A stretch of DNA of 64,000 nt from Candidatus Omnitrophota bacterium (GCA_042570305.1 JBHPGP010000003.1:14507-78506); one strand, 5' to 3'. Shown: positions 197 to 63,605, counted from the first letter of the stretch. Made by a program: numbers and translations. Notes: generated from the letters alone by a model not told the origin.

Positions 197-2071
197 TTGC
201 AGGAGACACAAGGCTTGAATAGAAATCAGAATATATTCGCCTGCGTTATTTTAATCATCATCTTAGGTTTTGCCGTTTACGGCAATTCCCTCAACGGGAA
301 ATTTGTCTGGGATGACGACCCCCTGATCAGGGATAATGTTTATATAAAGAACTGGTCTCATCTAAATAAGATTTTTACCAGGGATATAATGGGAGGCGAA
401 GGAGAAGAAAGCAATTTCTACCGCCCCCTGCAGGTGTTCACCTATATGATAGATTACTCCCTGTGGGGATTCAATGCCAGGGGCTATCACCAGAGCAACA
501 TCTTATTTCATATCTTGGCAACCTTAGCGCTGTTCTGGTTCGTGACTATTCTCTTTGACAGCCTGCCCCTTGCGCTATTTACCAGCCTGTTTTTCTTGAT
601 CCATCCCGTACATACCGAAGCCGTTGCCTATATATCAGGACGCTCAGACCCGCTGGCTTTATTATTTATGCTGCTCTGCCTTATCTTCTATATAAAAGGC
701 CTGCGCGAAAGGAGAGCGGGTTTTTACCTAGTTGCCTTATTAAGCTATGTATTGGCCCTGCTTTCAAGAGAGAATAGCCTGGTCTTACCTGCCTTATTGC
801 TGCTCTATCATTATAGTTTTAAAGAGAGACTCAGGGTTAGAGAGTTCTTACCCATATTAAGCATCGCCATTATTTATGTTTTATTAAGATTTACAATCCT
901 GGAGTCTCTGTTATCCAATATATCTATCACTACTACTTTTTTCCAAAGGGTACCTGGTTTTTTTGTGGCTATCACCAATTATGTCAGGTTAATACTTTTT
1001 CCTTTTAATCTGCATATGGAATATGGCACAGGCTTGTTTGAGCTAAGCAATCCTAAGGCAATAGCAGGAATATTCATCTTATTCTCTTTATTCTTTTACG
1101 CCGTTAAGAAAAGGAACACTAACAGATTAGCTTTCTTTTCCATATCGTGGTTCTTTATTGCACTTTTACCTCAATCTAATCTCTACCCGATTAATGCCTA
1201 TATGGCTGAGCACTGGCTGTATCTGCCATCTATAGGGTTATTTCTTCTTTTGGCCAAGGGCCTGGTTTACGCTTGTCAGAATAAACCGTCCCGTATTCCA
1301 GGGATAATTGTTGCAGTCAGTCTATTGGTATTTTATTCCTCTTTGACCATCATGCAGAATATTTACTGGAGAGAGCCGCTAGTTTTCTACGAAAAGACTT
1401 TACAATATGCTACTGATAAGGCAAAGTTTTATAACAACCTCGGTAATATTTACTATGCCCTTGACAGAAGAGAAGAAGCCATAACTGCATACAGCAGAGC
1501 CATAGAGCTCAACCCAGGTTATGCCAAGGCATATAACAACCTCGGCAATATTTACTATGCCCTTGACAGAAGAGAAGAAGCCATAACTGCATACAGCAGA
1601 GCCATAGAGCTCAACCCAGGTTATGCCAAGGCATATAACAACCTCGGAGTCTTATACAATTCCATTGGCAGGAAGCAGGATGCGATAATCTCATATAAGC
1701 AGGCAATAGAGTCTGGCCTTGGTTATGCAGAGGTATATAGCAATCTTGGTTCTGTATACTATGATATCAACAAACACGAGGAAGCTATGGACCTATTTAA
1801 AAAGGCGATAGAAATCAATCCAGATTTTGCAGGGGCATATTATAACCTCGCTAATGCATACATTAATCTTGATAAAAAACAAGAAGCCATAGAATTATAT
1901 CAGAAAGCCATAGAGCTCAATCCGAGTTATGCAAAGGCATACAATAGTTTATCTTTAATCTATTTTCTACAGAAGCAATACAAATTAGCCATTGAGTATT
2001 GCGATAAGGCAAAGGAGTTGGGCTTTACCAACACCGCTCTTTCAGAATCCCTTAAGCCGTATAGAGAATAA
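197..2071 (+). CDS. TMTC-like membrane glycosyltransferase (GT-C/PMT-like, DUF1736-type N-terminus) fused to TPR repeats
   Basis: 624-aa ORF with a multi-TM N-terminal half carrying the FVWDDD first-loop motif typical of GT-C enzymes. The C-terminal half has ~7 TPR units (AYNNLG..A...Y..AIELNP). By homology with the downstream paralog the true start may be TTG 215, preceded by AGGAG at 201-205. Confidence 0.75.
   Translation: MQETQGLNRNQNIFACVILIIILGFAVYGNSLNGKFVWDDDPLIRDNVYIKNWSHLNKIFTRDIMGGEGEESNFYRPLQVFTYMIDYSLWGFNARGYHQSNILFHILATLALFWFVTILFDSLPLALFTSLFFLIHPVHTEAVAYISGRSDPLALLFMLLCLIFYIKGLRERRAGFYLVALLSYVLALLSRENSLVLPALLLLYHYSFKERLRVREFLPILSIAIIYVLLRFTILESLLSNISITTTFFQRVPGFFVAITNYVRLILFPFNLHMEYGTGLFELSNPKAIAGIFILFSLFFYAVKKRNTNRLAFFSISWFFIALLPQSNLYPINAYMAEHWLYLPSIGLFLLLAKGLVYACQNKPSRIPGIIVAVSLLVFYSSLTIMQNIYWREPLVFYEKTLQYATDKAKFYNNLGNIYYALDRREEAITAYSRAIELNPGYAKAYNNLGNIYYALDRREEAITAYSRAIELNPGYAKAYNNLGVLYNSIGRKQDAIISYKQAIESGLGYAEVYSNLGSVYYDINKHEEAMDLFKKAIEINPDFAGAYYNLANAYINLDKKQEAIELYQKAIELNPSYAKAYNSLSLIYFLQKQYKLAIEYCDKAKELGFTNTALSESLKPYRE
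533..816 (+). repeat. 284-bp tract 100% identical to 2428-2711 (gene-conversion tract, copy 1)
   Basis: Base-by-base comparison of the two tracts shows no mismatch, at a constant offset of 1895. Confidence 0.95.
1430..1633 (+). repeat. Tandem duplication of one 102-bp (34-codon) TPR unit, 101/102 identical
   Basis: 1430-1531 and 1532-1633 differ only at 1446 vs 1548 (T vs C). The encoded peptide YNNLGNIYYALDRREEAITAYSRAIELNPGYAKA occurs twice. Confidence 0.95.
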
Positions 2072-2109
2072 GAGCAATCGGTTGGATAATTTTTACAGGA
2101 GACTAAGAC

Positions 2110-4350
2110 TTGTTCAAAAGAGAATCTATATTCGCCTGCGTTATTCTAATCATCATCTTGGGTTTTGCCGTTTACGGCAATTCCCTCAACGGAAAATTTG
2201 TCTGGGATGACGACCATCTAATCAGGGATAATTTATACATAAAGAGCTGGGCTCATATAAATAAGATTTTTACAAAAGATATAGGGGCAGCTACTGCAGT
2301 CCAATACAATTCATATCGCCCCTTACAGATGTTCACCTGCCTCATAGATTACTCTCTGTGGAAATTAGATGTAAGGGGCTATCACTTAAGCAATACCTTA
2401 TTCCATATCTTTGCGACATTGGCCTTATTCTGGTTCGTGACTATTCTCTTTGACAGCCTGCCCCTTGCGCTATTTACCAGCCTGTTTTTCTTGATCCATC
2501 CCGTACATACCGAAGCCGTTGCCTATATATCAGGACGCTCAGACCCGCTGGCTTTATTATTTATGCTGCTCTGCCTTATCTTCTATATAAAAGGCCTGCG
2601 CGAAAGGAGAGCGGGTTTTTACCTAGTTGCCTTATTAAGCTATGTATTGGCCCTGCTTTCAAGAGAGAATAGCCTGGTCTTACCTGCCTTATTGCTGCTC
2701 TATCATTATAGCTTCAAAAAGAAAATAAGGATTTGGCAGTTTCTTCCTATATTAAGCGCAGGGCTTATCTATATTGGATTACGAGTAACTGTTTTCAAAT
2801 CCATAATGCCGGATATTTCCATTTGTAATAGCGTATTTGAAAGAATCCCGGGATTCTTTGTTGCCATAACTAACTACATCAGGCTTCTTTTCCTTCCCCT
2901 TAACCTGCATATGGAATACGGACACAGGTCGTTTAGTTTTACGGACCCCGGAGCAGTGCTGGGGGTTATAATCCTGCTTTTGCTTGTTAGCTATGCGTTC
3001 AAGAAAAGGAATACGGACCAATTAGTATCCTTCTCCATATTATGGTTTTTTATAACACTCCTGCCCGTATCTAACCTTTATCCTCTTAATGCCTATATGG
3101 CTGAACACTGGCTGTATCTGCCTTCAATCGGGTTCTTTCTGCTTTTGGCAAGGGGGTTAAGTTATGCATATCGCAGGAAGGTGCTTAGAGGCTTAAGCAT
3201 AATCTTTACTATAGTCCTGTTGGTTTTATATTCTTACCTTACCTTCAGGCAGAATATTCACTGGAGGGAACCGCTGGTTTTTTATCAAAGGACCATGAAA
3301 TATGCCCCGGATAGCCCAAAGCTGTATAATAACCTCGGTAATGTCTGCTTTGCCCTGGGCAGAAAGGAAGAGGCGATAGGCTTTTACAGGAAGGCCATAG
3401 AGATAAAACCGGATAATGCAGGAGCATATAATAACCTCGGAGTTTTATACAAAGATATTAACCGTCCCCAAGAAGCGATAGACTTATACAGGAAAGCCTT
3501 AGAGATAAAGCCGGGATTTGGCCAGGCATATTATAATCTTGGCAACGCATATTACGCCATAAACGAATATGAAAAGGCGGTAGACTCGTACAAAAGAGCA
3601 ATTGCAATTCACCCGGACTTTGTAGATGCGTATAATAACCTCGGAGTCGTATACAGGGATATTAACATGGAAAAGGAAGCCGCATCAGCTTACAATAAGG
3701 CTATAGAGATTAATCCGTCCTACGTAGTTGCTTATAATAATCTCGGGAACCTTTACATGGCCGCAAACAAACACCAGGAGGCCATAGCCGCTTATGATAA
3801 GGCTATTCAGAGAGCCATAGAAATCGAACCTGATCTGGCAAAAACATACAGCAATCTTGGCCTGGCATACGAAGCGCTTAATAAAAATAAAGAGGCAATA
3901 GCCTCATATCAAAAATCTATAGAGCTTGATCCCGATAATGCAGGTTCTTTTTATAACCTGGGCAATGCATACAACGCGATTAACAATAAACAAGAAGCCA
4001 TTGCTTCATACCAGAAGGCAATATCAGCCGATTCGCAGTATGCCCAGGCTTATAATAACCTTGGGGTAACATACGTTAATATCGGTAAGCACTCAGAGGC
4101 TGTAGCCTTACTTGATAAGGCAATAGAAATTAATCCCGATTATGTCAAAGCCTATTTTAATAAAGCCCTTGCTTGCGAGAAGGCAGGCCGCCTGAAAGAG
4201 GGGATAGAAACCTACAGGAAATTTATTCAACTTGCCGGTACTGAATACGAGCCTTATATCGGGTATGCAAAGGCAAGAATAAGCCTGCTTGAGGGCAGAA
4301 GCGGCGAGGCGCCTGAACCAAATTTTGATGAATCAGGATTGGTAGATTAA
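2110..4350 (+). CDS. TMTC-like membrane glycosyltransferase (GT-C/PMT-like) fused to ~11 TPR repeats; paralog of 197..2071
   Basis: 746-aa ORF with a TTG start 8 nt after AGGAG (2097-2101). It has the same FVWDDD motif and TM core as the upstream gene and a longer TPR array. Its stop overlaps the stop of the convergent helicase gene (4347-4350). Confidence 0.75.
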   Translation: MFKRESIFACVILIIILGFAVYGNSLNGKFVWDDDHLIRDNLYIKSWAHINKIFTKDIGAATAVQYNSYRPLQMFTCLIDYSLWKLDVRGYHLSNTLFHIFATLALFWFVTILFDSLPLALFTSLFFLIHPVHTEAVAYISGRSDPLALLFMLLCLIFYIKGLRERRAGFYLVALLSYVLALLSRENSLVLPALLLLYHYSFKKKIRIWQFLPILSAGLIYIGLRVTVFKSIMPDISICNSVFERIPGFFVAITNYIRLLFLPLNLHMEYGHRSFSFTDPGAVLGVIILLLLVSYAFKKRNTDQLVSFSILWFFITLLPVSNLYPLNAYMAEHWLYLPSIGFFLLLARGLSYAYRRKVLRGLSIIFTIVLLVLYSYLTFRQNIHWREPLVFYQRTMKYAPDSPKLYNNLGNVCFALGRKEEAIGFYRKAIEIKPDNAGAYNNLGVLYKDINRPQEAIDLYRKALEIKPGFGQAYYNLGNAYYAINEYEKAVDSYKRAIAIHPDFVDAYNNLGVVYRDINMEKEAASAYNKAIEINPSYVVAYNNLGNLYMAANKHQEAIAAYDKAIQRAIEIEPDLAKTYSNLGLAYEALNKNKEAIASYQKSIELDPDNAGSFYNLGNAYNAINNKQEAIASYQKAISADSQYAQAYNNLGVTYVNIGKHSEAVALLDKAIEINPDYVKAYFNKALACEKAGRLKEGIETYRKFIQLAGTEYEPYIGYAKARISLLEGRSGEAPEPNFDESGLVD
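2428..2711 (+). repeat. 284-bp tract 100% identical to 533-816 (gene-conversion tract, copy 2)
   Basis: Same comparison as for copy 1. The flanking coding sequence is clearly diverged. Confidence 0.95.
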
Positions 4351-7705: not shown

Positions 7706-8746
7706 ATGTTACGCTACTTAACGTCCGGGGAGTCACACGGAAGAGCTTTATTGTCTATATTAGAGGGAATTCCTGCGGGACTGAAGGTTCAGGTTATCCG
7801 GATTAATCAGGAGATGAAGCGCAGGCAAAAGGGCTATGGCCGCGGGAAAAGGATGCAAATTGAGCAGGACAGGATTGAAATCCTTTGCGGCCTGAAAAAT
7901 AACCTTGCCTTAGGCAGCCCCATAGGGATACTGATTAAAAATAAGGATTTCAGTATTGAAAAACTGCCTAAAGTAATCTCGCCGCGACCAGGGCATGCGG
8001 ATTTATCCGGATTGCTTAAATATGGTTTTTCCGATATTCGCGAAGTATTAGAGCGTGCCTCGGCCAGGCAGACGGCAGCGTGGGTGGCAATCGGGGCAAT
8101 CTGTAAAATACTCCTGGAGCAATTCAAAATCAGGATAACCAGCCGCGTATTAGAGGTAGGGGGAAGTAAGAATCCAGCTCAGATAAAGAAGATTATTGAC
8201 CAGGCAAGAAAGAACAAGGATACCGTGGGGGGGATGTTTCAGGTAAAGGCAAAAGGGGTTATTCCGGGATTAGGAGGCTATACCCAGCCAGGTCAGCGTT
8301 TGGACAGCAGGCTGGCTCAGGCAATCATTTCGATTCCCGGAGTAAAGGCAGTAGAAATCGGGCTAGGGTTTGGCTATGCGGATAAACCGGGTTCCCAGGT
8401 TCACGATGCGATTTATTACTCCTCAACTAAAGGATACTATCGCAGGACCAATAATGCAGGCGGCATTGAGGGCGGGATTTCTAACGGAGAGGATATTATC
8501 CTGAATGCCTGCATGAAGCCTATCTCTACACTGCTTGCCCCGCTGGACTCAGTAAATATAAAAACCAGAAAGAAGGCAAAGGCAAGTATCGAACGTTCCG
8601 ATATCTGTGTGGTTGAGGCAGCAGGCGTCATTGCAGAAGCAGCAGTGGCGTTTGAGCTGGCAGGCGCATTTCTGGATAAATTCGGCAGCGACTCTCTTGG
8701 CGATATTAAAGCCGGTTACCAGCACTATCTTAAGAGATTGAAGTAA
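7706..8746 (+). CDS. aroC: Chorismate synthase
   Basis: The ORF track starts at 7622, but homologs start at MLRYLTSGESHGRAL, which is ATG 7706 here. GESHG, RPGHAD and GGxSNGE motifs are present. Confidence 0.92.
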   Translation: MLRYLTSGESHGRALLSILEGIPAGLKVQVIRINQEMKRRQKGYGRGKRMQIEQDRIEILCGLKNNLALGSPIGILIKNKDFSIEKLPKVISPRPGHADLSGLLKYGFSDIREVLERASARQTAAWVAIGAICKILLEQFKIRITSRVLEVGGSKNPAQIKKIIDQARKNKDTVGGMFQVKAKGVIPGLGGYTQPGQRLDSRLAQAIISIPGVKAVEIGLGFGYADKPGSQVHDAIYYSSTKGYYRRTNNAGGIEGGISNGEDIILNACMKPISTLLAPLDSVNIKTRKKAKASIERSDICVVEAAGVIAEAAVAFELAGAFLDKFGSDSLGDIKAGYQHYLKRLK

Positions 8747-8761
8747 GAAATGATGTGAGAA

Positions 8762-8804
8762 AATCACCCCTGCCTCGTCTATTAGGATGAGAAGGGGGGT
8801 GATT
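8762..8804 (+). promoter_or_regulatory. Hairpin that can sequester the spoVG Shine-Dalgarno region
   Basis: AATCACCCC (8762-8770) pairs with GGGGTGATT (8796-8804). The right arm overlaps the SD GAAGGGGGG, 4 nt upstream of ATG 8808. Confidence 0.35.
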
Positions 8805-8807
8805 GAG

Positions 8808-9068
8808 ATGCCCAAGCAGATGAATCTGGAGATTGTCAGGCTGCACCGGTTTGACAGCGAAGATTCAAAACTAAAAGCCTTTGTGGATGTGGCAATAGGA
8901 GAATTTATTGTTAAGGGTATGCGCATCATGCAGGGGCAAAAAGGGCTGTTTCTGGCAATGCCAAGGGAGCAAGGCAAAGACGGGCGTTGGTACAGCTGCG
9001 TGTATCCCAAGAGCCAGAAGGCACACCAGGATTTGACTGAGATGGTTTTAGCAGCCTACCAGGAATAG
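8808..9068 (+). CDS. spoVG: SpoVG family protein
   Basis: Matches the SpoVG pattern (E)IxxVRLxR...LKAFxxVxxxxEFxV...I..G..GLFxAMP. ATG 8808 is preceded by the purine-rich SD GAAGGGGGG. ATG 8820 is an alternative start. Confidence 0.8.
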   Translation: MPKQMNLEIVRLHRFDSEDSKLKAFVDVAIGEFIVKGMRIMQGQKGLFLAMPREQGKDGRWYSCVYPKSQKAHQDLTEMVLAAYQE

Positions 9069-9090
9069 CTTAAATAAGGTGTCAGAATAA

Positions 9091-9124
9091 AGCCCCGGGA
9101 TTTAGCTCTCGGGGCTCTATGTTT
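9091..9124 (+). terminator. Candidate intrinsic terminator after spoVG
   Basis: AGCCCCGGGA-tttagc-TCTCGGGGCT forms a 10-bp stem with one G-U pair, followed by the T-rich CTATGTTTG. Confidence 0.5.
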
Positions 9125-9175
9125 GCGCCTGTTTTTTGCCTTAATCGCAGGTGATTGGCAACAATAAGGTACAAG

Positions 9176-9204
9176 TTGACAGGGATGTAACTAGATGTTA
9201 AAAT
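9176..9204 (+). promoter_or_regulatory. Near-consensus sigma70-type promoter (TTGACA-17 nt-TAAAAT) upstream of aroK leader
   Basis: TTGACA lies at 9176-9181, followed by a 17-nt spacer and TAAAAT at 9199-9204. It sits in the 360-bp spoVG-aroK spacer, downstream of the terminator. Confidence 0.55.
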
Positions 9205-9216
9205 TAGTGGTTATGA

Positions 9217-9283
9217 GGGGGCACCCTTTTATACAGCTTAAGGGGTGTCCCCCGATTGGCTAAGAGGGTATTTTTGGGTGTCC
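9217..9283 (-). repeat. CCAATCGG-core palindromic element, copy a (reverse orientation, extended)
   Basis: Sequence: GGGGGCACCCTTTT...AAGGGGTGTCCCCCGATTGGCTAAGAGGG...GGGTGTCC. The reverse complement contains TTAGCCAATCGGG, identical to copy d. Confidence 0.7.
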
Positions 9284-9350
9284 GAGTTAGTGAGGCCACC
9301 AGGGGTATTGTTAAAACCATGGCTAATATTTACTTGGTGGGTTTTATGGG
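9282..9350 (+). repeat. 69-bp direct repeat, copy 1 (duplicate of aroK RBS region + first 32 coding nt)
   Basis: 68/69 identical to 9392-9460. The single difference is T9311 vs C9421. Confidence 0.95.
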
Positions 9351-9369
9351 GTTCTGGTGCGACGGATAA
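9319..9369 (+). CDS. Candidate 16-codon upstream ORF / leader peptide MANIYLVGFMGFWCDG* created by duplication of the aroK 5' end
   Basis: It has the same RBS context and first 32 nt as aroK (69-bp direct repeat), then diverges to Phe-Trp-Cys-Asp-Gly-stop. Translation is unproven. Confidence 0.25.
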   Translation: MANIYLVGFMGFWCDG

Positions 9370-9391
9370 GGAGCACCGCTTAGAACGGTGG

Positions 9392-9460
9392 CCGAGTTAG
9401 TGAGGCCACCAGGGGTATTGCTAAAACCATGGCTAATATTTACTTGGTGGGTTTTATGGG
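9392..9460 (+). repeat. 69-bp direct repeat, copy 2 (authentic aroK 5' end)
   Basis: 68/69 identical to 9282-9350 at an offset of 110 nt. Confidence 0.95.
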
Positions 9461-9941
9461 AACAGGCAAGACTGCCGTAGGCAGGGAAGTGGCCAGGCAG
9501 TTGAATCAGCAGTTTATTGACCTGGATTCCAGGATTGAGAAGGGGGAAGGGAAAAAAATCAGTCAGATTTTCTCTGAAGAGGGAGAGGCCTATTTTAGGA
9601 ACCTGGAAAAACAGGCGCTCAAACAGATAGCAGCAGGAGCAGGCTGGGTGGTTTCCTGCGGCGGAGGTATTATTTTGGATAACGATAATATCAGGATGAT
9701 GAAAGAGACGGGAAGTATGGTTTGCCTTACCTCAAGGCCGCAGGTGATTCTTATGCGTACGCAAGCTTATGGGCACCGGCCTTTATTGAACGTTGATAAT
9801 CCGGCTGAAAAGATTGAGGAACTGCTTAAGATGCGCGCGCCTTTTTATGCCCAGGCAGATTATACTATTGATACCTCGGATTTGACAATTGCGGAAGTAG
9901 TGAATAAGGTTCTGACATATGTTAGAGGCAAAAACGCTTGA
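9429..9941 (+). CDS. aroK: Shikimate kinase
   Basis: 170 aa with the P-loop GFMGTGKT, in the typical AroK size range, in an aro context near aroC. Confidence 0.9.
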   Translation: MANIYLVGFMGTGKTAVGREVARQLNQQFIDLDSRIEKGEGKKISQIFSEEGEAYFRNLEKQALKQIAAGAGWVVSCGGGIILDNDNIRMMKETGSMVCLTSRPQVILMRTQAYGHRPLLNVDNPAEKIEELLKMRAPFYAQADYTIDTSDLTIAEVVNKVLTYVRGKNA

Positions 9942-10875
9942 TTGGCTTAAGTTAACGCTTATTCCCGCCATCGGTCCGGCAAGGCTGAAGATGCTGCGAG
10001 AAAGATTCTTGCAGCCGGATAAAATTTTCGCTGCTTCAGAAAAAGAGCTTGCTTCGGTTTTGGGTGCTGAGCCTGCCGGGGTAATCCAGCGGCAGCGAAA
10101 GGAAATTGATTTGGCCAGGCAGCTGCGCCTGATAGAGAAGTATCGTGTTCAGATTATTACTCAGGATGACGCATCCTACCCAAAGAACCTGAGGAGTATA
10201 TTCGACGCCCCTTTTTTATTATTTTTGCAGGGCGAGCTTTCACCGGGAGACGATTTTGCAATTGCCGTTGTGGGCACCAGGATGGCAACGCTGTATGGAA
10301 TGAATATGGCGCGTAAGATCAGCATCCAGTTAGGGCAGGCAGGGTTTACGATTGTCAGCGGGGGAGCCAGGGGAATTGATACAGCCGCTCATCAGGCAGC
10401 GTTGGGGATAAATGCGCGCACAATTGCGGTAATAGGATGCGGCCTGGATGTGGTTTATCCTTCTGAAAATGCGCGTCTGTTTCAACGGATTGCGCAAAGG
10501 GGTGCGGTGATTTCCGAGTTTCCTATGGCAACCGCGCCTTTTCGCCAGAACTTCCCTCAGCGTAACCGCATTATCAGCGGTTTATCTATGGGGGTAGTTG
10601 TTGTTGAAGCGCCGGTCAGGAGCGGTGCCCTGATTACTGCTTCGGCTGCGCTGGAGCAGGGCCGCGAGGTCTTTTGCGTGCCAGGAGAGGCTGACAGTTT
10701 TACCATGAAGGGCAGCCACCAGCTGTTAAGGGAAGGGGCAAGATTAGTCGAGGGTATTGAAGACATTATTGAGGAGATAGAACCTATATTGAGAAACAGA
10801 TTAGTAAAAAGGGACACCCTGCCGATTGGCTCAAAGGGTGTCCCCCGAACGGATGAAAGGATGTCCCTTAAATGA
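9919..10875 (+). CDS. dprA: DNA-processing protein DprA (Smf)
   Basis: 318 aa with an N-terminal HhH-like region and a Rossmann-like DprA core (VVGTR..., SGGARGID, VVVVEAPVRSGALITA). It has the conserved dprA-topA synteny and an ATGA overlap with topA. Its 3' tail is encoded by a palindromic repeat copy. Confidence 0.88.
   Translation: MLEAKTLDWLKLTLIPAIGPARLKMLRERFLQPDKIFAASEKELASVLGAEPAGVIQRQRKEIDLARQLRLIEKYRVQIITQDDASYPKNLRSIFDAPFLLFLQGELSPGDDFAIAVVGTRMATLYGMNMARKISIQLGQAGFTIVSGGARGIDTAAHQAALGINARTIAVIGCGLDVVYPSENARLFQRIAQRGAVISEFPMATAPFRQNFPQRNRIISGLSMGVVVVEAPVRSGALITASAALEQGREVFCVPGEADSFTMKGSHQLLREGARLVEGIEDIIEEIEPILRNRLVKRDTLPIGSKGVPRTDERMSLK
10811..10844 (-). repeat. CCAATCGG-core palindromic element, copy b (minimal 34-bp form, inside dprA 3' coding end)
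   Basis: GGGACACCCT-gccgattggctcaa-AGGGTGTCCC is a perfect 10-bp inverted repeat. The reverse complement reads GGGACACCCTTTGAGCCAATCGGCAGGGTGTCCC. Confidence 0.8.
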
Positions 10876-12848
10876 AGAATGCATTAGTAATTGTGGAGTC
10901 GCCAACCAAGGCAAAAACCATCGGCAACATTTTGGGCAAGGGTTATTCAATCATTTCTTCAATGGGGCATATTATTGACCTGCCGCGCAAGAAGCTGGGG
11001 ATTGATATGGAAAATGAGTTCAGTCCGGAATTCGTGGTTATTTCCGGAAGGCAGAAGATATTAACCGCACTAAAGAAAGAGGCAGCCGGTAAAGACAAGA
11101 TTTATATTGCTACTGACCCTGACCGCGAAGGCGAGGCAATCGGGTGGCATATCAAGGAGAAATTAGCCGGAAAGAGAAAATTCCTGAGGGTGGTTTTCCA
11201 TGAGATTACCCCTCAGGCAATAAAGGAGGCATTCCATAACCCGCGAGGCTTTGATGCGAATATGGTTGAGGCTCAGTTTGCGCGCCGCATCCTTGATAGA
11301 ATCGTGGGTTATTTCTTAAGCCCTTTGCTCTGGCGTAAGATCAGCCGCGGTTTAAGCGCAGGCAGGGTGCAATCCGTAGCCCTGCGCTTACTCGTGCAGC
11401 GCGAAAGAGAAATCCAGAAATTCGTTCCTCAGGAATACTGGGAGATTGAGGCAGAGCTGCGCAAGAAATCCGCCTCAAAGAAACAAAGCAGCTTTACGGC
11501 AAAATTAGAGAAGATAGGAGAAGACAAGGCCCAGATACAAGATAAGCAGGCTGCGGATAATCTATTAGAGGATTTAAAGGACAAGGCGTTTATCGTCAGC
11601 GGAATCAAACAGAGCGAAAAAAAGCGCAGGCCATCGCCTCCTTTCATTACCAGCACCTTGCAGCAGGAGGCGTTTAATAAGTTAAAGTTTGGTATCAGGC
11701 GTACAATGATCATTGCCCAGCAATTATACGAAGGCATTGAGCTGGGCGGGAAAGCCCCGGTAGGTTTAATTACCTATATGAGAACCGATTCTACCAAGGT
11801 GGCGGCTTCTGCGCTTGTGCAGGTACGTAATTTTATACTTAATAATTTTGGCAAACATTACCTGCCCGACTCACCGAATATCTATAAGACCAAAAGGCTG
11901 GCACAGGAGGCCCACGAGGCAATCCGGCCGGCTTCGCTTGAGTATACTCCGGAGAGCATAAAAGACTCCCTCAATAAAGAACAGCATAAATTATATGAAT
12001 TAATCTACAACCGGTTTGTCGCCAGCCAGATGGCGCCGGCACGTTATCTGGTAACCCAGGTGAAGATCAAGGCAGATAACTATTTGTTTTCCGTTTCCGG
12101 GACCAAGGTTATCTTTCAGGGGTTTACCAGGGTTTATAACCGCGAGGAGGAAGAGGATAAGGCATTACCTGATTTGGAAAAGGACGAGGCGCTGGATTTA
12201 ATCAAGCTTATTCCCAGCCAGCATTTTACCAGGCCGCCCAGCCGTTATTCGGAGGCTTCGCTGGTTAAAGTTTTGGAAGAAGCGGGCATTGGCCGTCCCT
12301 CGACTTATGCCCCGATAATCCTTACCATTATTAACCGGGATTATGCGCGCCGCATCAAAGGGTACTTTCACGCCACTGAGTTAGGTTTTAAGGTCTGCGA
12401 TTTGCTGGTAGAATATTTCCCCCGCATCCTGAATATGAAATTTACTGCCCAGATGGAGGATGAACTGGATAAGATTGAAGAGGGGCAGTGCGATAGATTG
12501 AAGGTATTAAATGACTTTTACCCGCCCTTTAAATCCCTTCTGGATTATGCTCAGAAGCATATTAAGAAAGAGATAATCCTTACTGAGGAAGTCTGCAAGC
12601 AGTGCGGCCGTCCTCTGGCAATAAAGTGGGGCCGCCGGGGGAAATTCCTGAGTTGTTCCGGGTTTCCCGAATGCAAATATTCCAAAACTATCACTACCGG
12701 CGTGAAGTGTCCGTCGCCGGGATGTGATGGCGAATTAGTCCAACGCCGTTCAAAGCGCGGCGCATTCTACGGCTGTTCTAATTTCCCCAAATGCCGCTTT
12801 ACCAGCAGGGATTTACCCGCGCCCAAAGAGGATGCAACGCTACATTGA
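10872..12848 (+). CDS. topA: DNA topoisomerase I
   Basis: 658 aa with a Toprim N-terminus (LVIVESPTKAKTI), the catalytic-Tyr region (GLITYMRTDS) and two C-terminal C4 zinc fingers. Confidence 0.93.
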   Translation: MKNALVIVESPTKAKTIGNILGKGYSIISSMGHIIDLPRKKLGIDMENEFSPEFVVISGRQKILTALKKEAAGKDKIYIATDPDREGEAIGWHIKEKLAGKRKFLRVVFHEITPQAIKEAFHNPRGFDANMVEAQFARRILDRIVGYFLSPLLWRKISRGLSAGRVQSVALRLLVQREREIQKFVPQEYWEIEAELRKKSASKKQSSFTAKLEKIGEDKAQIQDKQAADNLLEDLKDKAFIVSGIKQSEKKRRPSPPFITSTLQQEAFNKLKFGIRRTMIIAQQLYEGIELGGKAPVGLITYMRTDSTKVAASALVQVRNFILNNFGKHYLPDSPNIYKTKRLAQEAHEAIRPASLEYTPESIKDSLNKEQHKLYELIYNRFVASQMAPARYLVTQVKIKADNYLFSVSGTKVIFQGFTRVYNREEEEDKALPDLEKDEALDLIKLIPSQHFTRPPSRYSEASLVKVLEEAGIGRPSTYAPIILTIINRDYARRIKGYFHATELGFKVCDLLVEYFPRILNMKFTAQMEDELDKIEEGQCDRLKVLNDFYPPFKSLLDYAQKHIKKEIILTEEVCKQCGRPLAIKWGRRGKFLSCSGFPECKYSKTITTGVKCPSPGCDGELVQRRSKRGAFYGCSNFPKCRFTSRDLPAPKEDATLH

Positions 12849-13692
12849 TAAGTTCTTAAGATATCTGGAGATCGAGAAGAATTATTCCTCGCTTACCCTG
12901 TTGAATTACCGGGTGGACCTGGAAGATTTCAGCAGCTTTCTCAGGCAGACGCCATTAGAGAAGGTAGATTATTTAGCCTTAAGGAGGTACCTGGCGCATC
13001 TGAAAGAGAGAAGGTTAGGCACGCGCAGCATAGCCCGTAAGCTTTCCTGCCTGCGTTCCTTTTTCAAGTTTCTCTGCCGCGATAATTACCTGAAAAGCAA
13101 TCCTGCGCTGAGCCTGAGCGCAATGAGGCTGGATAAACACCTGCCCTCATTCTTGACCGAAGAGCAGGTGTTGAAGTTATTGCAGGCGCCCGGAGGCAGC
13201 ACCGAAAGGGACCTGCGCGACCAGGCGATCCTGGAGACGTTTTACAGCACAGGGATGCGCATTTCAGAATTGGTGGGCATGAATATCGATGATTTGGATT
13301 TTATCAGCGGCGTAGCTAAAGTCAGGGGTAAGGGGAAAAGGGAACGCCTGCTTCCCATCGGAGAGTATGCGCTGAAGGCGATCCGGTCATATTTGGAGAA
13401 AAGAAAAAAGAAATCCAACTCCTTATTCTTGAATAAGAATAACACCCGCTTATCCGACCGGGGGGCAAGGAACGTGGTGCGTAAGTATATCCGTCTTGCT
13501 TCATTAAGCGGCGGTATCTCAGCGCATAGCTTAAGGCATTCCTTTGCTACGCACCTCTTAAACCGCGGAGCAGACTTAAGAAGCGTACAGGAGCTTTTAG
13601 GACATGCTAATTTGTCTACAACCCAAATTTATACGCATCTTACTACTGAGAAGCTAAAGAGCGTCTATGATAAGGCTCACCCCAGGGCATAA
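12832..13692 (+). CDS. xerC: Tyrosine recombinase XerC/XerD family
   Basis: 286 aa with an N-terminal SAM-like domain and the catalytic R...HxLRHSFATHLL...GH...TQIYTH signature. It follows topA as in many genomes. Confidence 0.85.
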   Translation: MQRYIDKFLRYLEIEKNYSSLTLLNYRVDLEDFSSFLRQTPLEKVDYLALRRYLAHLKERRLGTRSIARKLSCLRSFFKFLCRDNYLKSNPALSLSAMRLDKHLPSFLTEEQVLKLLQAPGGSTERDLRDQAILETFYSTGMRISELVGMNIDDLDFISGVAKVRGKGKRERLLPIGEYALKAIRSYLEKRKKKSNSLFLNKNNTRLSDRGARNVVRKYIRLASLSGGISAHSLRHSFATHLLNRGADLRSVQELLGHANLSTTQIYTHLTTEKLKSVYDKAHPRA

Positions 13693-13702
13693 AGGAGGTA
13701 AA

Positions 13703-14377
13703 ATGAAGCCCAAGATTTTACTAATATTATCAACCGTCTTTTTGTTTGCCTGTTTTATTAATCTTCAGGAGGTAGTTATGGCTGAATTAACCAAGATCCA
13801 GTTGCCCGAACCGGTTAAGCAAGGCAAGATGTCTGTAGAGGAAGCCATCTTAAACAGGCGCTCGGTAAGGAATTTCACGCAAAGGGATTTAGGCTGGCCT
13901 GAAATCAGTCAATTACTCTGGGCAGCTCAGGGTATCACCGCAAAAAAGGGCAGCCTTTCCTTGCGCTCCGCTCCCTCAGCAGGAGCCCTTTACCCCCTTG
14001 AGATTTACCTTTTTAATTCGCAGGGAATGTTTCATTATCTGCCGCAGTCTCATAAGCTGGAGGTTCTTGCCGAAGGAGACCTGCGCAGCGTTCTTTGCGA
14101 AGCTGCCCTGTCTCAGGCATCTGTTGCTCAGGCAGCGGTTGATATTGTTATCTGCGCGGTCCCTCAACGGGTAACCGCCAAATACGGCGAACGGGGAATG
14201 AAATATGTGTATATTGAAGCCGGGCACGTTGCCCAGAATATTCATTTAGCAGCAGTTGCCTTAGGCCTGGATTCATTGCCTGTCGGAGCATTTAGCGATG
14301 AGCAGGTTAGTGCAATTTTATCCCTGCCTGCAGAGCAAGAGCCTGTTTACATTATCCCAGTCGGTTACGCCCAATGA
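13703..14377 (+). CDS. Nitroreductase-family (SagB-type) oxidoreductase with N-terminal signal/anchor
   Basis: ATG 13703 follows AAGGAGG. RRSVRNF and GALYPLE motifs are typical of the nitroreductase/SagB fold. The hydrophobic N-terminus is KILLILSTVFLFACF. Confidence 0.7.
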   Translation: MKPKILLILSTVFLFACFINLQEVVMAELTKIQLPEPVKQGKMSVEEAILNRRSVRNFTQRDLGWPEISQLLWAAQGITAKKGSLSLRSAPSAGALYPLEIYLFNSQGMFHYLPQSHKLEVLAEGDLRSVLCEAALSQASVAQAAVDIVICAVPQRVTAKYGERGMKYVYIEAGHVAQNIHLAAVALGLDSLPVGAFSDEQVSAILSLPAEQEPVYIIPVGYAQ

Positions 14378-14435
14378 GGGACACCCTGTTTACCAATCGG
14401 GAGTCTGGCGTAGGGCTAATCGGGAGCCTGTCCCC
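14378..14435 (+). repeat. CCAATCGG-core palindromic element, copy c (full length)
   Basis: Sequence: GGGACACCCTGTTTACCAATCGGGAGTCTGGCGTAGGGCTAATCGGGAGCCTGTCCCC. It starts directly after the nitroreductase stop codon. Confidence 0.85.
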
Positions 14436-14453
14436 AAGTAAGTTGATTATTTT

Positions 14454-15752
14454 ATGACTATTCTTTATGATTTAGCATTTATTATTTTCGCAATAGGTTA
14501 TCTTCCCTATCTTCTCCTGAAAAGAAAGCTGCATAAGGGGCTGTTTCAGCGCTTGGGCTTTCTGCCGGAGAGCCTGAGGTTAGAGCAGCCTGTCTGGATA
14601 CACGCCGTAAGCGTTGGAGAGGCAAGGGTAGCCGGAATTCTGGTTGAACAATTACGTCGGGATTTTCCCGGTAAGAGATTTGCCTTCTCGACCATAACAG
14701 TTACCGGAAGTAAGATTGTACGCAGCTTCCTGCAGAAAGGGGATTTTTTGTTTTATCTGCCTTTTGATTTAAGCCTTATCGTCAGGAAGGTCATCTCGCG
14801 GCTTAAGCCCTGTGCCTGCATTATCGTGGAAACAGAAATCTGGCCGAATTTAATCTATCAACTGAAAAAAATGAATGTTCCTGTTATTCTGGTGAATGCG
14901 AGGATTTCAGACCGTTCATTTTCCGGCTACAGGACCATCAGGCCCCTGATTAAACCAATTTTAAACAAGGTGAATCTCTTCTGCGTTCAGGGTCAGAGTG
15001 ATGCACGCAGGCTATCAAGCTTGGGCGTAGATACAGATAGGCTGCGGGTTACCGGCAACATGAAATTCGATTTTTTACAGTGCTCTCAAGGCATTAAAGG
15101 GGATTATACGAACTACAAACTGAGACTGGGCTTGGAAACAAAAGAGAAATTATTTATTGCCGGCAGCACACACCCCGGAGAAGAGGAAGTTATCCTTAAT
15201 ACTTATAAGAAGCTATTAGATGAATTTCCCGGCTTGCGGCTCCTGCTTGCTCCGCGCCATCCTGAAAGGGCTGGGCAGGCAGCAGGCGAGGCAGTAAAAT
15301 TCGGATTCCAGGCAGTACTTATTTCTACTTTGACAAACAGTGCGCAGCAGGCTACGCAAGCGCAAGGGGACAGAAGCAGACAGCCTCCGGTATTTATCCT
15401 GGATACTATCGGAGAGCTCATGTCTTTTTATGCCATTGCGGATATTGTCTTTGTCGGCGGCAGCCTGGTCAAGAAGGGCGGGCATAATATACTGGAGCCG
15501 GCTTTATGCGCAAAGCCTATTCTTTTCGGACCTCATATGTTTAATTTCAGGGAGATGAGCGAATTATTCTTAGCCCAAAAGGCAGCCCGCATGGTGCGGG
15601 GGCAGGAAGAATTATTCATTGAAATGAAAAATTTATTGACCGATAGTTCTCAGCTGATGAATATTGGAAAACAGGCGAGGGAGCTGGTTTTAAAAAACCA
15701 GGGCGCAACCAGTCAGAATGCAGAGTTAATTAAAGGGTTAGTTGCCGTATGA
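14454..15752 (+). CDS. waaA: 3-deoxy-D-manno-octulosonic acid (Kdo) transferase
   Basis: 432 aa with an N-terminal anchor, the WIHAVSVGE motif and a GT30-like C-terminal half (GGSLVKKGGHNILEP). Confidence 0.9.
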   Translation: MTILYDLAFIIFAIGYLPYLLLKRKLHKGLFQRLGFLPESLRLEQPVWIHAVSVGEARVAGILVEQLRRDFPGKRFAFSTITVTGSKIVRSFLQKGDFLFYLPFDLSLIVRKVISRLKPCACIIVETEIWPNLIYQLKKMNVPVILVNARISDRSFSGYRTIRPLIKPILNKVNLFCVQGQSDARRLSSLGVDTDRLRVTGNMKFDFLQCSQGIKGDYTNYKLRLGLETKEKLFIAGSTHPGEEEVILNTYKKLLDEFPGLRLLLAPRHPERAGQAAGEAVKFGFQAVLISTLTNSAQQATQAQGDRSRQPPVFILDTIGELMSFYAIADIVFVGGSLVKKGGHNILEPALCAKPILFGPHMFNFREMSELFLAQKAARMVRGQEELFIEMKNLLTDSSQLMNIGKQARELVLKNQGATSQNAELIKGLVAV

Positions 15753-54785: not shown

Positions 54786-55000
54786 TGCAGTTTCTGGGCA
54801 GGGCCTTAATCATCTCCGGACTATTACTGGTTGTTTTCGGAGTATTATTTTCTTTTTTTGGCAAGATTCCTCTTTTAGGAAAACTGCCTGGCGATATCCA
54901 CATCGAAAAGAAGAATTTTACTTTTTATTTTCCTTTAGCCAGCTGTGTGCTGATTAGCTTATTTCTGACCTTGTTTTTCTGGCTTTTTCCCCGCCGTTAA
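54785..55000 (+). CDS. DUF2905 family small membrane protein
   Basis: 71 aa with two TM helices flanking GKLPGDIHIEKKNFTFYFP. This small gene is commonly found after ruvB. Confidence 0.7.
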   Translation: MQFLGRALIISGLLLVVFGVLFSFFGKIPLLGKLPGDIHIEKKNFTFYFPLASCVLISLFLTLFFWLFPRR

Positions 55001-55022: not shown

Positions 55023-55079
55023 GGGACATCCTTTTAGCCAATCGGGAGTCTGGCACGGAGCCAATCGTCAGTGTGTCCC
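55023..55079 (+). repeat. CCAATCGG-core palindromic element, copy d (full length)
   Basis: Sequence: GGGACATCCTTTTAGCCAATCGGGAGTCTGGCACGGAGCCAATCGTCAGTGTGTCCC. It is collinear with copy c and lies between the DUF2905 gene and tgt. Confidence 0.85.
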
Positions 55080-55088
55080 TGTTTATGA

Positions 55089-56210
<1,122 letters not shown>

Positions 56211-63546: not shown

Positions 63547-63605
63547 GGGGACAGTTCTCCGATTGGTGTAAGAACCGGTCCTCGAAGGAGTCAAGAACCG
63601 GTCCT
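63547..63605 (-). repeat. CCAATCGG-core element, copy e (divergent, reverse orientation, with internal AAGAACCGGTCCT x2)
   Basis: Sequence: GGGGACAGTTCTCCGATTGGTG...AAGAACCGGTCCT...AAGAACCGGTCCT. The reverse-complement end CCAATCGGAGAACTGTCCCC matches the right end of copy c. Confidence 0.55.

Follow-up and report, generated by a model that had tools for sequence, protein, structure and literature searches.

Five palindromic elements in a 64,000-nt stretch of Candidatus Omnitrophota DNA (the whole stretch that was analysed, hereafter the window) very probably belong to a REP family of the Omnitrophota, with a REP-associated tyrosine transposase (RAYT) encoded elsewhere in the same genome. The preliminary description had called the elements REP/BIME- or MITE-like. 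We keep the first part of that label and drop the second, because the gene that the elements flank in relatives encodes an HUH-Y1 RAYT and not a DDE enzyme.

A hairpin repeat family in Omnitrophota-type assemblies

To place the elements, we scanned one genome for each of 185,579 species (596 Gb) with a strict 26-nt pattern (19 fixed bases plus one Y; 39-bit), for which we estimate ~2 chance matches on both strands. The scan returned 49 exact matches in 46 further loci, all within 20 Omnitrophota-type assemblies. By title, 29 of these loci are Omnitrophota or Omnitrophica and 17 are 'uncultured Planctomycetales bacterium' (third-party assemblies). The earlier suggestion of a lineage-specific family is therefore borne out, every strict-pattern locus lying in Omnitrophota-type MAGs. 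A looser pattern gave 11 singletons in viral contigs, showing no clustering, which we took as chance level. Copies are rare in most relatives, and a covariance search of 80 topA-centred loci (717 kb) found ~5 sites.

In relatives, the basic unit is a 34-nt hairpin in which the arms GGGACACCC and GGGTGTCCC enclose a 16-nt loop. The inner length of 140 hairpins is 16 nt in 102 and 39 nt (16 + 23) in 33, with the other five measuring 9, 15 or 38 nt. A single stem carries three loop types, with cores CCAATCGG, CCAAAGCT and CTGAATAC; the loops read ..CCAATCGGGA (T1), ..C(C/T)AAAGCTAA (T2) and ..CTGAATACAA (T3). All three contain a variable hexamer, often TTTNNG. We counted 77 strict units in 353 kb and 0 in five shuffles.

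Units occur singly, as 57-nt doubles that arise from an exact 23-nt partial duplication, or as inverted doublets. The relatives contain 22 inverted T1/T2 or T1/T3 pairs, with gaps of 6–34 nt in 21 and 86 nt in one, and such doublets fold as one long ssDNA hairpin (z −5.4 to −7.8). Four identical 57-mers were found on four contigs of MAG STD1_220 (L022, L023, L044 and L055), which points to recent amplification there.

The foot of 57 outermost units reads NYAG in 47 and NTAG in 31; the first position is G in 7, and the full GTAG occurs in 2. Flank logos together with tallies of foot and tail revealed no CGTC tag at either end. Many outermost ends carry TA directly before GGGACACCC and again directly after GGGTGTCCC. 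Because the stems are nearly invariant and the alignment was stem-selected, covariation cannot test the hairpin. The only compensatory support for the stem comes from two arm variants in which both sides are changed and pairing is kept: GGGACACTTCT/AGAAGTGTCCC in L143 (9899–9938 and 10522–10561) and the related variant GGGACGTTTCT in L147 (10350–10480).

Five copies with a common modular layout in the window

All five sequences in the window were confirmed as quoted in the preliminary description. Copies a, b and e lie on the minus strand and copies c and d on the plus strand, so that both orientations do occur. The proposed collinearity of c and d also stands (58 nt aligned at 78% identity; repeat D12 of the repeat finder), and copy b is the reverse complement of both over ~75 nt (repeat I1, 75 nt; also I6 and I11). 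When brought into the same orientation, all five copies share one layout: arm (9 nt), spacer (6 nt), core (8 nt), arm (9 nt), spacer (6 nt), core (8 nt) and closing arm (11 nt). This amounts to 57 nt in copies a–d and 58 nt in copy e. The window contains tandem doubles of this kind only and no inverted doublets.

Pairwise global alignments among a–d gave z values of 5.7–10.9. Copy e aligned to b, c and d with z of 3.6–5.2, scores equalled by 0 of 500 shuffles, and the pair e and a was the exception (z 2.1; equalled by 14 of 500 shuffles). A degenerate pattern for the first half-unit, GGGACAYCCNNNNNNCCRWTCGGG with ≤3 mismatches, matched four times in the window against 0.19 expected, and all five CCAATCGG octamers of the window fall inside the five elements. 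We also trained a covariance model on 81 family units, including units of copies a and b, and ran it with search filters off. Its only matches below E ~1 in the 64-kb window were copies a, b, c and d; copy e went undetected in this search. Rfam at gathering thresholds produced no match within the window.

Copy a (9218–9274, minus strand) is a 57-nt double identified by its layout and by a covariance match at 9215–9254(−) of 34.7 bits. On its own strand, a decayed half-unit, AAAATACCC-TCTTAG-CCAATCGG, precedes a 34-nt hairpin that is near-intact and has a loop of type T3, GGGACACCC-CTTAAGCTGTATAAAA-GGGTGCCCC. Copy b (10811–10867, minus strand) is also a 57-nt double (covariance match of 54.9 bits, E 6e-14; ssDNA fold z −3.8), and consists of a half-unit and an intact T1 hairpin, GGGACACCC-TTTGAGCCAATCGGCA-GGGTGTCCC. 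Copy c (14378–14434, plus strand; 17.4 bits, E 0.006) is a T1 unit followed by a 23-nt repeat of the 3′ part of that unit, again 57 nt in all. Its inner arms are decayed and it has no stable ssDNA fold (z +0.7). Copy d (55023–55079, plus strand), a 57-nt double of the same sub-type as copy c, scored 16.2 bits, or 39.7 bits when scored as a double. Copy e (63548–63605, minus strand) is a diverged member, a 58-nt double recognised by layout and alignment z. It retains the module lengths and CCAATCGG core as well as the closing ..CTGTCCC arm, while its 5′-type arms read AGGACCGGT, a variant absent from every other locus. Copies c, d and e fold poorly now as ssDNA and may therefore be inactive relics.

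The boundaries given in the preliminary description are essentially retained for c, d and e. They change for the other two: copy b extends to 10867 rather than 10844, and copy a is 9218–9274. The GGGTGTCCG at 9276–9284 belongs, as first arm, to a neighbouring duplicated UTR hairpin and lies outside copy a. A 10-nt 'insertion' previously read into copy a was dropped in favour of a simpler arrangement, in which a standard 57-nt double abuts this duplicated hairpin.

Gene context of the window copies

The elements had been described as lying immediately after stop codons. This holds for copies c, d and e, which begin 0, 22 and 2 nt past a stop, and fails for a and b. Copy a lies 13 nt past the −10 box of a near-consensus promoter (9176–9204), which places it in the aroK 5′ UTR and not after a stop. 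Copy b falls within the final 65 nt of the dprA ORF (9919–10875), encodes the last ~19 residues of DprA (MFC1657936.1) and ends 4 nt ahead of the topA ATG. Copy c runs from the base after the nitroreductase TGA to 19 nt ahead of the kdtA ATG. Copy d is flanked by a 71-aa membrane ORF, whose stop lies at 55000, and by tgt, whose ATG lies at 55095. Copy e follows the MTHFR stop codon.

A role in termination, raised earlier, was not upheld. The copies have no T-run, and a canonical terminator sits elsewhere in the spacer that holds copy a: a terminator scan of 8700–15000 listed it at 9091–9116, after spoVG, and listed none of copies a, b and c. Loops of 16 nt and the flanks of d and e, which carry no T-run, likewise depart from intrinsic terminators.

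Several other features were noted in these regions. Next to copy a, a 110-bp tandem duplication (9277–9350/9387–9460; 97% identity) covers the hairpin of the aroK 5′ UTR (GGTGGCC..GGCCACC) as well as the ribosome-binding site, start ATG and first 11 codons of the gene. From the ATG at 9319, its first copy retains a pseudo-start ORF of 16 codons. In the relative L145 the duplication is present in decayed form, which indicates that it is old. DprA of the window lacks the C-terminal winged-helix domain (PF17782), as do the proteins of L058, L060 and L144–L146, and the domain is kept in DprA of L059/P0144 and of more distant relatives. The truncated end adjoins the REP, which makes a deletion associated with the element possible. 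Farther away, two adjacent paralogous tetratricopeptide-repeat genes (197–4350) share 300 nt at 81% identity and carry internal 102-nt (34-aa) repeats.

REP-flanked RAYT genes in related genomes

A 160-aa ORF lies between two elements at 317–799(−) of L041. Its product matches Pfam Y1_Tnp (1e-16) and the NCBIfam model NF047646, 'REP-associated tyrosine transposase' (81.8 bits; cutoff 80). Using tblastn, we found homologues in L029, L032, L045 and, frameshifted, in L036; further loci are L138, L140, L142 and L143. The same search found no homologue in the window, in agreement with the earlier statement that no transposase is present there.

In all nine loci, a reverse-orientation REP lies 9–41 nt past the RAYT stop. 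Six of them (L041, L029, L036, L140, L142 and L143) also have a forward REP upstream, ~80–110 nt from the RAYT start in five and ~215 nt in L142. The resulting order, forward REP, RAYT and reverse REP, has the geometry of the short inverted doublets. The RAYT search that the preliminary description had proposed as a test thus comes out in favour of the REP reading, with an element-flanked gene in nine related genomes; the genome scan, its other proposed test, does so too. Two synteny contexts recur, one with a CpaF-like ATPase and DUF192 and the other with sigma-70 and CHAT. Among the loci examined, at most one RAYT was seen per assembly.

A protein search returned 338 relatives of ~160 aa, and all the named ones come from Omnitrophota. 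The family has invariant H-x-H and Y-x-E-x-N-P motifs and an invariant Trp. Compared with the PDB, the family profile ranked E. coli TnpA_REP (4ER8) first, with an E value of 2e-7 as against 0.006 for IS200-type enzymes; a profile was needed for this, as a single-sequence phmmer search with the L041 RAYT matched nothing in the PDB. By its invariant motifs and its fold match to 4ER8, the enzyme looks catalytically intact.

An identity as an IS200/IS605 element was considered and rejected. The RAYTs score 22–29 bits on the IS200 model NF033573 (transpos_IS200; cutoff 55) and 77–84 bits on REP_Tyr_transpos, and both profile and fold rank 4ER8 above IS200, IS608 and ISDra2.

Two loci show additional rearrangements or variants. 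In L138, an insertion of an IS110-family transposase gene (8778–9839) separates the upstream REP from the RAYT; REPs are known targets of IS110-type elements in other bacteria (PMC8450116). In L066 (1–900), a RAYT homologue of 50% identity is flanked by a different repeat. This repeat keeps the CCAATCGG core, has arms GGGTACAG/CTGTACCC and shows a 15-nt inverted repeat, GCACCGTTTGCAAAC, on both sides, which hints that arms and enzyme may co-vary. L142 and L143 hint in the same direction.

The window's own assembly almost certainly encodes a RAYT as well. The proteins of the window, whose contig is 78,688 nt long, carry accessions MFC1657929 to MFC1657984 in gene order. The RAYT P0043 (MFC1657879.1, 'transposase [Candidatus Omnitrophota bacterium]'), encoded on an 80,378-nt contig, precedes the first gene of the window by 49 accession numbers. 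Judged by this adjacent numbering, rather than by a shared record, its contig is almost certainly the preceding one of the same assembly. P0043 scores 84.3 bits on NF047646. Its AlphaFold model (pLDDT 89, pTM 0.85) has 4ER8_A as best match, with a TM score of 0.75 over the full length, compared with 0.49–0.57 for the TnpA proteins of IS200, IS608 and ISDra2. The bracketing of RAYT genes by REPs is known from the sequences of the nine related genomes.

Placement of the elements relative to genes in relatives

Using crude ORF calls, on which all of these position statistics rest, we found that 67 of 70 clusters are not deep inside ORFs, though ORFs make up ~93% of the sequence. The distance from the upstream stop codon is −1 to +15 nt in 47 of 66 cases, and in 15 cases the stop codon itself is a TAG made of the foot TA and the first G of the element. 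The median spacer length is 85 nt where a REP is present and 10 nt where none is. By hand tally, T1 runs with transcription 15 times and against it 14 times, giving no strand bias. Feet that provide TAG stop codons, and in-frame copies within genes for DNA processing, are published REP traits (PMC3733652), and the placement of the Omnitrophota elements matches them. In L039 (708–764), a 57-nt double REP lies in frame inside ComEC, between the DUF4131 and Competence domains, and adds ~20 residues.

Retention, loss and loop switching at orthologous junctions

The gene order spoVG–aroK–dprA–topA–xerC/D-like–(nitroreductase)–kdtA is conserved in relatives, and the junctions that hold copies a, b and c could be compared. 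At junction b (dprA–topA), orthologous REPs are present in L059, L144, L145/146 and L147. They have the same flanks and the same second half-unit, and end a few bases ahead of the topA ATG. As for the first loop, the window, L144 and L059 carry T1, L145/146 carry T3, and L147 and a remnant in L058 carry a T3-like type. Between the window and L145, 9 differences fall within the 16 loop positions and 2 within the other 41.

A protein tail coded by the REP is present in P0121–P0123. The reading frame of the DprA tail differs between the window and L059, and the peptide is therefore not what is conserved. In L147 (6650–6735), a ~55-nt GC-rich palindromic insertion sits in the loop of the dprA–topA REP, with the DprA tail lengthened to 336 aa.

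At junction a (spoVG–aroK), a T3-type REP lies right past the −10 box and has orthologues in L145, L144 and L147. Junction c (nitroreductase–kdtA) is empty in L144, holds a different and larger cluster at another insertion point in L147, and retains a T3-like remnant in L058. Together, the orthologous junctions show long retention, gain and loss, and switching of the loop type.

Other readings of the repeats

We considered whether the elements could be host cis-elements under selection, acting as stabilisers or attenuators of RNA 3′ ends or as sites for DNA-binding proteins, with an incidental link to the Y1 enzyme. Such a reading would account for the copies within −1 to +15 nt of stop codons (47 of 66), for loop cores strongly conserved over 20 assemblies, and for the retention of the junction a and b copies across relatives whose DprA is only 70–80% identical. 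It is nevertheless very unlikely. The absence of strand bias relative to transcription (15 versus 14) led us to reject an RNA element as the primary identity, and the copies do not resemble terminators. Decay is seen in copies c, d and e, an orthologous spacer is empty in L144, and 717 kb of relatives hold ~5 sites. The dprA-tail frames differ between the window and L059, and the association with the RAYT is systematic rather than incidental. A host role can still be true as a secondary, co-opted function of the REPs.

We give hardly any credence to the view that the repeats are MITEs, that is, non-autonomous deletion derivatives of a DDE-type IS whose 9-bp terminal inverted repeats are recognised and which insert at TA and duplicate it. 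The perfect 9-bp terminal inverted repeats, the TA on both sides of many outermost ends and the empty site in a relative would all fit. However, the flanking TA...TA forms two more pairs of the palindrome and is thus indistinguishable from a duplication, and the only gene that is repeatedly bracketed, in nine genomes, is the HUH-Y1 RAYT. No DDE transposase with the same termini was found, the IS110 gene of L138 being a separate insertion. Moreover, a 34-nt unit is far under the usual size of a MITE, and partial duplications in a strict 23-nt register are not characteristic of MITEs.

Finally, chance clustering of short GC-rich palindromes, to which the weak or missing predicted structure of c, d and e and the escape of e from the covariance model could point, has next to no probability and is refuted by the four pattern matches against 0.19 expected, by alignment scores unmatched in 500 shuffles for nine of ten pairs (a versus e being the exception), by the 46 extra loci in one phylum only, and by the 0 units in shuffled controls.

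A model for dispersal and persistence

Based on the REP reading, we propose a model in which each unit comprises a foot N-Y-A, the stem GGGACACCC/GGGTGTCCC and a 16-nt loop of one of three types. Homology suggests that the units would be dispersed by the single-copy-like HUH-Y1 RAYT. By analogy with E. coli TnpA_REP, the enzyme would bind the hairpin and the 5′ foot on ssDNA, cleave via its tyrosine, and rejoin or transfer the strand. Binding, cleavage and rejoining have been shown for E. coli TnpA_REP only (PMC3479197). Of the four GTAG bases in E. coli, A and G alone base-pair with the CT cleavage site (PMC3479197). A and G are conserved in the NYAG foot, and hence the positions that set cleavage in E. 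coli are the conserved ones here.

Once inserted, copies last long in the few permissive sites of a compact genome. These are positions just past stop codons, 5′ UTRs and dispensable 3′ gene ends, where resident copies decay, get lost or change their loop type. Effects on neighbouring genes, such as protection of mRNA 3′ ends or slowed termination of the upstream ORF, would be secondary and are putative. E. coli REPs ≤15 nt from a stop codon reportedly lower translation of the upstream gene through ribosome stalling, and the stop-to-REP spacing observed here would allow a comparable effect. Transcript stabilisation and protein binding, both raised in the preliminary description, are possible, putative roles.

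A bolder version of the model is rather improbable in our view. It would make the family a third REP superfamily, tagged with neither GTAG nor CGTC, in which a constant 9-bp stem carries one of three interchangeable 16-nt loop cassettes and the RAYT reads the conserved loop core and the NYAG foot and catalyses REP-to-REP strand exchange. If true, such exchange would explain both the en-bloc switch between T1 (window) and T3 (L145/146) and the 23-nt register.

Comparison with known REP systems

About one in four sequenced species carries a RAYT (PMC5581495), and finding one in a further phylum is thus not surprising. Omnitrophota were not among the eight phyla surveyed by Di Nocera et al. in 2013 (PMC3733652), and our full-text literature searches for GGGACACCC and for Omnitrophota plus REP found no description of this family. 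With the present findings, the known range of REP/RAYT systems comes to include the Omnitrophota, a phylum whose members are ultra-small and uncultured. They supply an annotation rule, namely that the 160-aa genes to which NCBI gives the label 'transposase' in such MAGs encode RAYTs; most of the longer intergenic spacers there are explained by the hairpins. REP-encoded C-terminal tails and in-frame insertions in DNA-uptake genes (DprA, ComEC) could pass for real protein features. Experimental follow-up is hard because the organisms are uncultured; retained orthologous copies, an empty site and a loop switch nonetheless offer a natural series on how REPs persist and change.

The system resembles the REP/BIME elements of E. 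coli and their TnpA_REP (RAYT, YafM; 4ER8) in having short imperfect palindromes in many extragenic copies, sub-types arranged in mosaics (Y, Z1 and Z2 in E. coli; T1, T2 and T3 in Omnitrophota) and one HUH-Y1 gene bracketed by inverted REPs, the REPtron. The HUH, Tyr and Asn motifs are kept, the P0043 model aligns to 4ER8 with a TM score of 0.75, and the A and G of the foot are conserved. By contrast, the Omnitrophota foot is NYAG and not GTAG, and the 9-bp stem pairs perfectly, lacking the mismatched bulge on which the E. coli enzyme depends. At 16 nt, the loop is strongly conserved in its own right, doubles keep an exact 23-nt register, and protein identity between the Omnitrophota RAYT and 4ER8 is only ~16%.

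With the REPIN–RAYT system of P. fluorescens (Bertels and Rainey 2011; PMC3116915, PMC5581495), the family shares inverted doublets with short spacers that fold as one hairpin, and a repeat-flanked RAYT that has conserved synteny and is apparently single-copy. Identical copies at several loci of one genome, as in the four 57-mers of MAG STD1_220, are a further likeness. Unlike REPINs, whose halves are near-identical REPs, the Omnitrophota doublets join different loop types (T1 with T2 or T3), and each half is already a full hairpin. In addition, the window has tandem doubles only, and the family is common to many species of a phylum-level clade.

The GTAG and CGTC superfamilies of REPs (Di Nocera et al. 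2013, PMC3733652), especially the large-loop GTAG-15 family, likewise have stems of 6–9 bp and head-to-head dimers, lie near the 3′ ends of upstream ORFs, provide TAG stops from the foot and include in-frame copies in DNA-processing genes (here dprA, and ComEC in L039). The GTAG superfamily is defined by an unpaired 5′ GTAG, of which most members keep the first and last G, and the CGTC superfamily by an unpaired CGTC at one end (PMC3733652). As the first tag base is rarely G (7 of 57), the Omnitrophota family fits neither consensus as defined. The IS200/IS605 elements share the HUH-Y1 fold and the hairpin-plus-guide logic. They differ in that the Omnitrophota RAYT has no tnpB and its gene is apparently not multi-copy, and in that the dispersed units are hairpins of 34–57 nt, not full elements.

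Overall, the system belongs to the known REP/REPIN–RAYT class, of which the Omnitrophota member is new. Its less ordinary features are the conserved long loop in three cassette-like types, the exact 23-nt register and the loop switch at an orthologous site.
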